A stretch of 676 bases of DNA from NCBI RefSeq assembly GCF_003334405.1, contig NZ_QOWM01000057.1. One strand, given 5' to 3'. The translations under genes and the position numbers were made by a program. The notes beneath the pieces were generated by a model. The model was given only the letters and a program-made list of their open reading frames with translations, had not been told where the DNA came from and searched no databases. The stretch's first letter is position 1, and the number at the start of each line of letters is the position of its first letter. This DNA is from Escherichia coli. Lineage in GTDB: Bacteria; Pseudomonadota; Gammaproteobacteria; Enterobacterales; Enterobacteriaceae. Below, piece by piece: positions 1-676 of the stretch.

Positions 1-676
1 GTAAGTCACTGTGTGGATTATCATAACGGTAGCGGGTGATATCGCCGTCAGGGGCAGTTTCCTGAATCAGACGGCCCCATTCATCATATTCCCGGCGTAT
101 TTCCAGCCCGTCAGGCCCGGTGGCTGACGTTAACTGGCTGTGGTGGTTATAGTAAAACGCCGATGCCCTGCCATCCGGCGTGGTGATGCGCGTGATGAGG
201 CCCGTCACCACATCCGGACTGTATTCTGTTGTCCTGCCTGCGGCATCCGTCTGTGCCCTGAGCCTGCCCACCGCGTCAAACTGACTCTGCGTGACGCTGC
301 CGTCCGCGTGTTCCTTTTTCACCACCCGCTTCAGCCCGCCTTCACCCTGCGTGTGCAGGACTTCACGGCGGTTCAGGCTGTCGGTGATGGTGATGCGGTC
401 CTTCTCATACTGATACGTGTAACTTAAGCCTGCCGGGTTTAGCTGTTCTGTCACCCGCCCGTCGCTGTCGTAACGGTAACAGATTTCCGGTCGGCCCGTG
501 TGACGGTGCGCCACCATCCGGCCCCGGTATTTATCATCGTAAGTAAAGCTGCGCACCTGTGTATTGCTGCGGTCATACACCGCCGCCAGTTCGCCGCGGG
601 GCGTCCAGCCATAGCGCACCAGCGGCGCGGCAGGTAAATTCTCCGGGTATTCCGGGTCGTGCGTCAGCCACACGGC
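1..676 (-). CDS. rhs: Rhs-family YD-repeat protein, internal core fragment (partial at both ends; gene continues beyond both window edges)
   Basis: Hand translation of the reverse complement in the frame with codons at 676-674 ... 4-2 gives 225 codons with no stop: AVWLTHDPEYPENLPAAPLVRYGWTPRGELAAVYDRSNTQVRSFTYDDKYRGRMVAHRHTGRPEICYRYDSDGRVTEQLNPAGLSYTYQYEKDRITITDSLNRREVLHTQGEGGLKRVVKKEHADGSVTQSQFDAVGRLRAQTDAAGRTTEYSPDVVTGLITRITTPDGRASAFYYNHHSQLTSATGPDGLEIRREYDEWGRLIQETAPDGDITRYRYDNPHSDL. It contains repeated YD / YDxxGRL-type motifs (VYDRS, FTYDDKYRGRM, YRYDSDGRV, FDAVGRL, EYDEWGRL, YRYDNPHS), the hallmark of Rhs/YD-repeat cores. I recognise the sequence from memory as closely resembling the E. 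coli Rhs core, but I cannot tell which paralog (rhsA/B/C/D or other) from this fragment, so the symbol is the generic family name. No start or stop codon is present in the window, and position 1 belongs to the next codon downstream. Confidence 0.9.

Follow-up and report, generated by a model that had tools for sequence, protein, structure and literature searches.

We asked whether the high GC content of a 676-nt stretch of Escherichia coli DNA, analysed here over its whole length and referred to as the window, stems from a recent import from a GC-rich organism or is a long-standing property of the gene to which it belongs. The combination of a GC-rich core of about 3.7 kb and an AT-rich extension or tip classically defines the Rhs elements of E. 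coli and has been textbook knowledge since the early 1990s. An earlier note, made from the letters of the window, had recognised an Rhs core, reported a GC content of about 60% and cited the interpretation of such values as evidence of horizontal acquisition. Our results identify the window as part of the rhsC core, trace its GC excess to two sources and point to an old and persistent origin of the composition; taken together, we assign this reading a probability of about 90%.

The window is an internal segment of rhsC

Of the six reading frames, the sole one without a stop codon in the window is that of the minus strand starting at base 676, which runs for 225 codons. The sequence shares 100% identity with rhsC from E. 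coli K-12 MG1655 and from many other strains, and in the K-12 record (L001) it occupies positions 20001-20676 inside the rhsC coding sequence (19125-23318). The window thus comprises 225 codons, on its minus strand, from the conserved core of rhsC, which belongs to the Rhs (rearrangement hotspot) genes of E. coli K-12; it covers codons 293-517 of the 1,397-codon gene, corresponding to 16% of its length, and contains no boundary features. Of the 5,426 complete E. coli genomes, 3,885 contained matches, the median number of copies in a genome being three and their identity 95-99%, and two matches among the E. coli records were plasmid-borne. The K-12 paralogue rhsA showed 96.45% identity to the window.

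A search of the translated window against protein families revealed a match to the NCBIfam family RHS_core (NF041261) over model positions 301-525 with 443.7 bits (E 1.5e-132), a match to TIGR01643 YD_repeat_2x (E 6.6e-19) and five significant matches to the Pfam family RHS_repeat (PF05593; E 1.8e-07 to 9.4e-04). Together with the complete identity to K-12 rhsC, these matches confirmed the assignment to an Rhs core made in the earlier note. The features of the window are as follows.

1-676, minus strand: rhsC coding sequence, internal segment belonging to the GC-rich Rhs core (codons 293-517 of 1397; sole stop-free frame; 100% match to K-12)
1-676, no strand assigned: compositional feature, 59.9% G+C, with GC1/GC2/GC3 of 0.622/0.480/0.693 in the coding frame
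20-472, minus strand: run of YD (RHS) repeats, Pfam PF05593
377-472, minus strand: PF05593 repeat, residues 69-100 of the translation
230-328, minus strand: PF05593 repeat, residues 117-149 of the translation
167-280, minus strand: PF05593 repeat, residues 133-170 of the translation
107-205, minus strand: PF05593 repeat, residues 158-190 of the translation
20-88, minus strand: PF05593 repeat, residues 197-219 of the translation
500-601, minus strand: weaker sixth PF05593 match (E 0.11), residues 26-59 of the translation

Base composition of the window

The exact tally of A 107, C 212, G 193 and T 164 gives 405 G+C in 676 bases, or 59.9%, the very number that had been counted by hand in the earlier note. 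Divided into blocks of 60 bases, the GC content amounts to 50.0% (positions 1-60), 60.0, 56.7, 58.3, 66.7% (241-300), 63.3, 55.0, 56.7, 61.7, 61.7 and 65.0%, so that the previously named extremes of about 50% and about 67% were right in both value and position. The plus strand of the window shows a strong A/T asymmetry (T 164 versus A 107); conversely, on the coding minus strand A exceeds T and G slightly exceeds C (212 versus 193). This asymmetry is the ordinary purine bias of coding strands.

Opposite rhsC, the plus strand carries an antisense open reading frame of 95 codons at window positions 140-427. It most likely represents a shadow ORF, such as commonly occurs opposite GC-rich coding sequences, and its status as a gene is without support. 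A search of both window strands against Rfam at E <= 1 matched no family and gave no sign of an RNA element.

The window compared with the E. coli chromosome

As a background we used a sample of 376 kb of the same K-12 chromosome, taken from eight evenly spaced loci with the two Rhs elements masked, in which 280 long open reading frames served as proxies for annotated genes. The GC content of this sample is 51.5%, and its 676-base windows average 51.6% (sd 4.6). Among these windows, 0.74% reach 59.9% GC, and the window under study has a z value of 1.8; an independent-base model at 51.5% GC gives z = 4.4, with the empirical test being the more meaningful of the two. The comparison with the host proposed in the earlier note thus placed the window, at 59.9% GC and a GC3 of 0.693, against a sampled chromosome of 51.5% GC: neither does its GC lie near the host average, nor is the host itself a genome of about 60% GC.

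Of the proxy genes, 0.7% (n = 280) are as GC-rich overall as the window. Resolved by codon position, the window ranks in the top 1.8% for GC3 (0.693 versus 0.565 in the proxy genes) and in the top 2.9% for GC2 (0.480 versus 0.410); GC1 is not unusual (0.622 versus 0.598). The Karlin dinucleotide distance was 156 for the window compared with 88 +/- 31 for the background, which corresponds to the top 2.7%, and the whole core belongs to the top 3.6%. Native genes of equal GC content exist, such as eutA (60.7%) and fhuB (60.0%), and the neighbouring kdp genes have 54-58% GC. The window is a real but non-unique GC outlier, and a single window of 676 bases at 60% GC is unusual yet not without parallel in E. 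coli.

The trait that is unusual is the length of the sustained GC-rich stretch, which is followed by an abrupt drop within the same reading frame. The longest runs of windows with at least 58% GC in the sample are those of rhsC (about 3.8 kb) and rhsA (about 3.9 kb), and the next longest is that of fhuB with 2.3 kb.

GC content of core and tip

The core of rhsC (nt 1-3741) has a GC content of 61.3% and its C-terminal tip one of 41.6%, and the corresponding values for rhsA, which is 96-97% identical to rhsC within K-12, are 61.6% and 40.3%. In both genes the break between the two compositions is located near nucleotide 3640. Determined per 300 nt along the rhsC core, the GC content varies between 57 and 68%, and the 59.9% of the window falls within this range; a value of 60% GC is normal for the 3.7-kb core as a whole. 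The values for rhsC and rhsA agree with the 60-62% that the earlier note had quoted for Rhs cores. Its statement that the composition is corroboration and not novelty was likewise borne out, as a GC-rich Rhs core with an AT-rich extension has been described before (PMC2935791, PMC7259588).

In both genes the fall in GC sets in some 100 nt ahead of the point where the conserved PxxxxDPxGL motif ends. The last 100 nt or so of the rhsC core (nt 3642-3741; L001 22766-22865) have 42% GC and the same stretch of rhsA has 48%, compared with about 60% just upstream. Because the drop precedes the end of the motif, the final part of what is called the core belongs, by composition, already to the AT-rich tip. 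This early drop fits an exchange of tips together with the hyperconserved junction (PMC2935791).

Two sources of the GC excess

Recoding of the window protein with the codon usage of the background yielded an expected GC content of 55.8%, compared with the observed 59.9%. The mean of the proxy genes is 52.4% (52.9% in the test with 675-base segments), and the share of the excess that is due to amino-acid composition therefore amounts to 40-45%; in other words, about 3.4 of the 7.5 GC points above the average gene are set by the protein. In the latter, Arg, Thr, Tyr, Gly, Asp and His are abundant and Lys, Ile, Phe, Met, Asn, Ala and Leu are scarce.

Synonymous sites supply the other 4 points or so in the form of G/C-ending codons, with a GC3 of 0.69 versus 0.56 expected. 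The GC3 of the window lies 0.137 above the expectation conditioned on its amino acids, which places it among the highest 1% of 479 background segments, and 0 of these 479 combine an equally high amino-acid-driven GC content with an equally high GC3 excess. The codon log-likelihood under host usage was ordinary (z = -0.5). This measure does not discriminate here because the core prefers G/C-ending codons which are also common in E. coli, and it was replaced by the GC3 excess given the amino acids as the measure of atypicality. The codons over-used in the window are CGG, AGG, ATA, GTG and CAG. The high GC content has two measurable components, the amino-acid make-up of the YD repeats and a strong synonymous preference for codons ending in G or C.

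Age and distribution of the rhsC core

Escherichia albertii contains a relative of rhsC with 92% amino-acid identity, and the 9 kb upstream of it are collinear with the K-12 region from kdpE to ybfA, which identifies the E. albertii copy as a positional orthologue. Between E. albertii and K-12 the core is 91.7% identical and the kdp genes are 92.4% identical. The same site and a divergence like that of native genes indicate that the element was in place before E. coli and E. albertii separated. Orthologues from Citrobacter (C. amalonaticus) and Trabulsiella share 61-66% amino-acid identity with RhsC; their GC content is 59-62%, with 59-61% in the segment corresponding to the window and 51-56% in the flanks. 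At this level of amino-acid identity, synonymous sites should be saturated.

A wider comparison comprised eleven Rhs cores in hosts with a local GC content of 50.5-62.3%, with flank GC as a rough stand-in for host GC and with loci that are phylogenetically non-independent. The difference between core and flanks ranged from +0.5 to +10.2 points with a mean of +6.5; ten of the eleven cores lie 4 to 10 points above their flanks and one matches them. The offset of E. coli K-12 from its host is the largest in the set (+9.8 to +10.1 points) and exceeds what amino-acid composition explains, so that a foreign component is possible. In a host of 70% GC (L031), the core (69.2%) showed no excess over the upstream sequence (70.5%), although this is a rough point with little flank. 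Regression of core GC on flank GC gave a slope of 0.46 (r = 0.58, p = 0.06), which is too weak for a law given eleven non-independent loci. Three hits from a search of representatives at 50% identity are located on contigs of 6-10 kb whose flanks are too short for the comparison, and L031 alone gave the rough point above. For a Serratia Rhs element, 67.7% GC in the core and 46.4% in the tip have been reported (Jackson et al. 2009, PMC2935791), and the same authors describe rhs as an ancient, core enterobacterial family.

Within E. coli, kdp and rhsC are contiguous in 3,635 of 5,426 genomes, and eight matches in this search of E. coli records were plasmid-borne. Some strains, e.g. NC101 and ATCC 25922, have kept kdp (query positions 1-8337) and lack rhsC at the site. 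These strains reveal a presence/absence polymorphism of rhsC in E. coli, meaning that gain and loss do happen.

Several assemblies with Rhs genes are of unusual structure or taxonomic label. In C. amalonaticus AUH_CA_2023_1 (L011, L012, L023), all three Rhs frames stop after about 780-840 codons without reaching the DPxGL motif; they are either pseudogenes or the result of frameshift errors in the assembly. Enterobacterial-type Rhs cores of 59-65% GC were present on short contigs (0.5-4.3 kb; L009, L013, L020, L021, L022) attributed to genomes of Oscillospiraceae, Akkermansia muciniphila, Collinsella and Rheinheimera, with amino-acid identities to K-12 RhsC of 97% for L009 and 95% for L022. 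Binning or assembly contamination is the most likely source of these contigs. A search for homologous proteins yielded nothing but short enterobacterial fragments; the two on long contigs, Rhs fragments of 144 and 294 aa in GCA_014216895.1 and GCA_014216475.1 (L024, L025), are surrounded by plasmid-type genes (Tra, MobA, Rep3, CcdAB, IS) in contigs of 5.8-6.4 Mb, which represent either integrated plasmids or concatenated assemblies; both loci were unfit for the host-GC comparison.

Substitution patterns in the core and in kdp

Substitutions were polarised in the rhsC cores of K-12, O139:H1 P15-25 and O157 Al Ain with E. albertii as the outgroup, and the adjacent kdp genes served as control (K-12 regions: rhsC core, L001 19125-22865; kdp, L001 10598-18363). 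Across the three strains, the core had 90 GC-to-AT changes for 62 AT-to-GC changes, and kdp had 177 for 92 (Fisher p = 0.21). Per site, GC-to-AT changes occurred at 4.0% in the core and 4.1% in kdp, and AT-to-GC changes at 4.2% in the core versus 2.7% in kdp. The latter difference is 1.56-fold (Fisher p = 0.007); it comes from a post hoc comparison of three strains with a single control region and may be confounded by conversion from paralogues. The implied equilibrium GC contents are 51% for the core and 39% for kdp.

Between rhsA and rhsC of K-12, changes polarised by E. albertii were biased 57:31 towards AT (p = 0.007). A reading of this paralogue bias as amelioration was dropped, as the bias of native kdp (177:92) is equal or stronger. 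The lean of the core towards AT is consequently the ordinary substitution pattern of E. coli and no sign of faster decay, and no extra GC-to-AT decay of the core relative to native kdp was found in the three strains with this one control region.

Origin of the GC-rich core

The classical explanation regards the composition as a fossil: the cores evolved in a GC-rich genome, moved to E. coli fairly recently and have yet to drift to 51% GC. Wang, Zhao and Hill (1998) reportedly argued from substitution patterns between subfamilies that divergence of the cores took place against a GC-rich background. A recent introduction of the core from a GC-rich organism is stated, with reference to Hill et al. 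1994, in PMC7259588. Horizontal acquisition, which the earlier note had cited as a historical interpretation, thus does exist as a reading in the literature, and several of our observations agree with it. The window is in the top 0.74% of its host for GC, in the top 1% for GC3 excess and in the top 3% for its dinucleotide signature; the AT-rich tip and the fragments of ISAs1 (H-repeat) make the locus composite; rhsC is present in some strains and missing in others; and polarised changes of the core lean towards AT both between paralogues (57:31) and between strains (90:62). The tests nevertheless gave this interpretation little support. The lean towards AT is no greater than that of native kdp, with practically the same GC-to-AT rates, and about 45% of the excess is driven by amino acids. 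Since E. albertii has the locus at the divergence of its neighbours, any transfer would predate the split of the two species. In three other genera, orthologues with a divergence of about 35% have retained a GC content of about 60%, and cores stand above their hosts in genomes of 51-62% GC as well as in Serratia, so that none of the examined hosts looks like a donor at equilibrium. A fairly recent import is in our judgement unlikely, and a transfer in ancient times from a GC-richer background is possible.

A different explanation invokes active maintenance by a process that favours GC in the cores, either GC-biased conversion between near-identical copies or selection on synonymous sites or mRNA. 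The elevated AT-to-GC rate of the core at an equal GC-to-AT rate is what such a process would produce, as is the higher implied equilibrium (51% versus 39%). The copies, of which a genome has three in the median, are 95-99% identical (rhsA and rhsC 96-97%) and offer ample substrate for conversion, and the GC content has stayed constant across deep divergence. Against this stand the post hoc nature of a test with one control region and three strains, the unreliability that paralogue conversion can introduce into parsimony polarisation, and an implied equilibrium of 51% which still lies below the observed 61%; moreover, GC-biased conversion is debated for E. coli. We regard a contribution of such a process as improbable on this evidence, and slightly more so the strict form of the idea, namely that the GC content of Rhs cores is no transfer fossil at all and is upheld by a higher fixation of AT-to-GC changes, e.g. 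through GC-biased conversion among copies. If it were true, Rhs elements would lend themselves naturally to tests of biased conversion in E. coli, and the possible enrichment of AT-to-GC changes would bear on the question of how an atypical composition is preserved in multicopy genes. A local fluctuation of GC in a native gene, of the ordinary sort that many E. coli genes display, could be argued from eutA and fhuB, which reach 60.7% and 60.0%, from the 54-58% of the kdp neighbours and from the unremarkable codon log-likelihood (z = -0.5). It is very hard to reconcile with a high GC content that is sustained over about 3.7 kb and then, within one reading frame, drops abruptly to some 40%, with the repetition of this pattern in the paralogue rhsA and in orthologues of four other genera, and with the finding that 0/479 background segments combine high amino-acid-driven GC with a high GC3 excess; we consider this explanation highly improbable.

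Most likely, the composition of the window is an old and persistent property of an ancient enterobacterial gene family rather than the mark of a recent import. Taken on its own, GC-richness is weak evidence for a foreign origin. Horizontal transfer should not be concluded here from GC content alone, because the amino acids of the repeat protein impose nearly half of the excess and the rest has persisted through vertical descent.

The rhsC locus and the putative function of RhsC

Full-length RhsC (1397 aa) matched RHS_core over model positions 1-1261 with 2683.5 bits, compared with a curated cut-off of 2000. Outside the window, the N-terminus (residues 1-293; L001 19125-20003) contains a clear DUF6531 domain (E 2.8e-18), and the Rhs-associated core domain TIGR03696 was located at residues 1170-1247. 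The PxxxxDPxGL motif at the end of the core reads PISNIDPLGL in RhsC (residues 1238-1247) and PVTNTDPLGL in RhsA. An NCBIfam search with the 150-residue tip of RhsC and with YbfB yielded no family for either.

In K-12, rhsC is located between ybfA/kdp and ybfB, and these are followed by an orphan Rhs fragment, ybfC and remnants of ISAs1 (H-repeat). The ybfB gene, immediately downstream of rhsC, has 108 codons and 31% GC. No vgrG is present next to rhsC at this locus, and the Pfam PAAR_motif gave a marginal, partial match to RhsC at residues 2-20 (E 0.13). Judged by these sequence features, loading of K-12 RhsC on a secretion spike appears doubtful.

By analogy with solved homologues, the beta-hairpins formed by the YD repeats of the window would be part of a hollow Rhs shell. 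This shell may enclose the variable C-terminal toxin until delivery, as in Tse5, Tre23 and RhsA. The putative toxin of RhsC would lie past the PxxxxDPxGL motif (residue 1247), which is the site of autoproteolysis in the homologues studied, and the small, AT-rich ybfB is the presumed immunity gene. The roles of RhsC and YbfB as shell, toxin and immunity protein are thus predicted from their homologues.

Comparison with known systems

The closest counterpart of the window is the RhsA-B-C-F subfamily of E. coli Rhs elements (clade I, Jackson et al. 2009; NF041261), of which it is a member without any differing feature. The YD repeats, the 3.7-kb core of 61% GC, the tip of 40-42% GC, the small AT-rich downstream gene and the PxxxxDPxGL motif at the end of the core are all shared with these elements. 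The GC-rich rhsC core is already known, and the window is an ordinary part of a well-described gene.

Solved Rhs effectors of type VI secretion systems (T6SS), namely Tse5 (8cp6), Tre23 (7pq5), RhsA of P. protegens (7q97) and a Salmonella bongori core (8qjd), aligned through their shells over nearly the whole window (E 1.7e-36 to 1e-19), with the Rhs cage of Tse5 (8cp6_B residues 213-422, E 1.7e-36) as the closest solved relative. The alignment supports the prediction that the window encodes part of a toxin-enclosing cage, although these effectors are distant sequences from other hosts. The genomic context differs as well. Relatives at two loci (L027, L028) have vgrG directly upstream, whereas K-12 rhsC lacks a vgrG neighbour and its match to PAAR is marginal (E 0.13). 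A further relative (L026) adjoins T6SS structural genes (TssF, TssG, ImpA, ClpV-like), in contrast to the position of K-12 rhsC between ybfA/kdp and ybfB.

With horizontal islands that are recognised by composition, the locus shares GC, GC3 and dinucleotide values in the top 1-4% of the host sample, nearby IS fragments and presence or absence among strains. It differs from them in that rhsC occupies the same locus in E. albertii at a divergence like that of native genes and shows no excess amelioration. Much of the GC excess of the rhsC core is, moreover, set by the protein, and the same offset is seen in other hosts.
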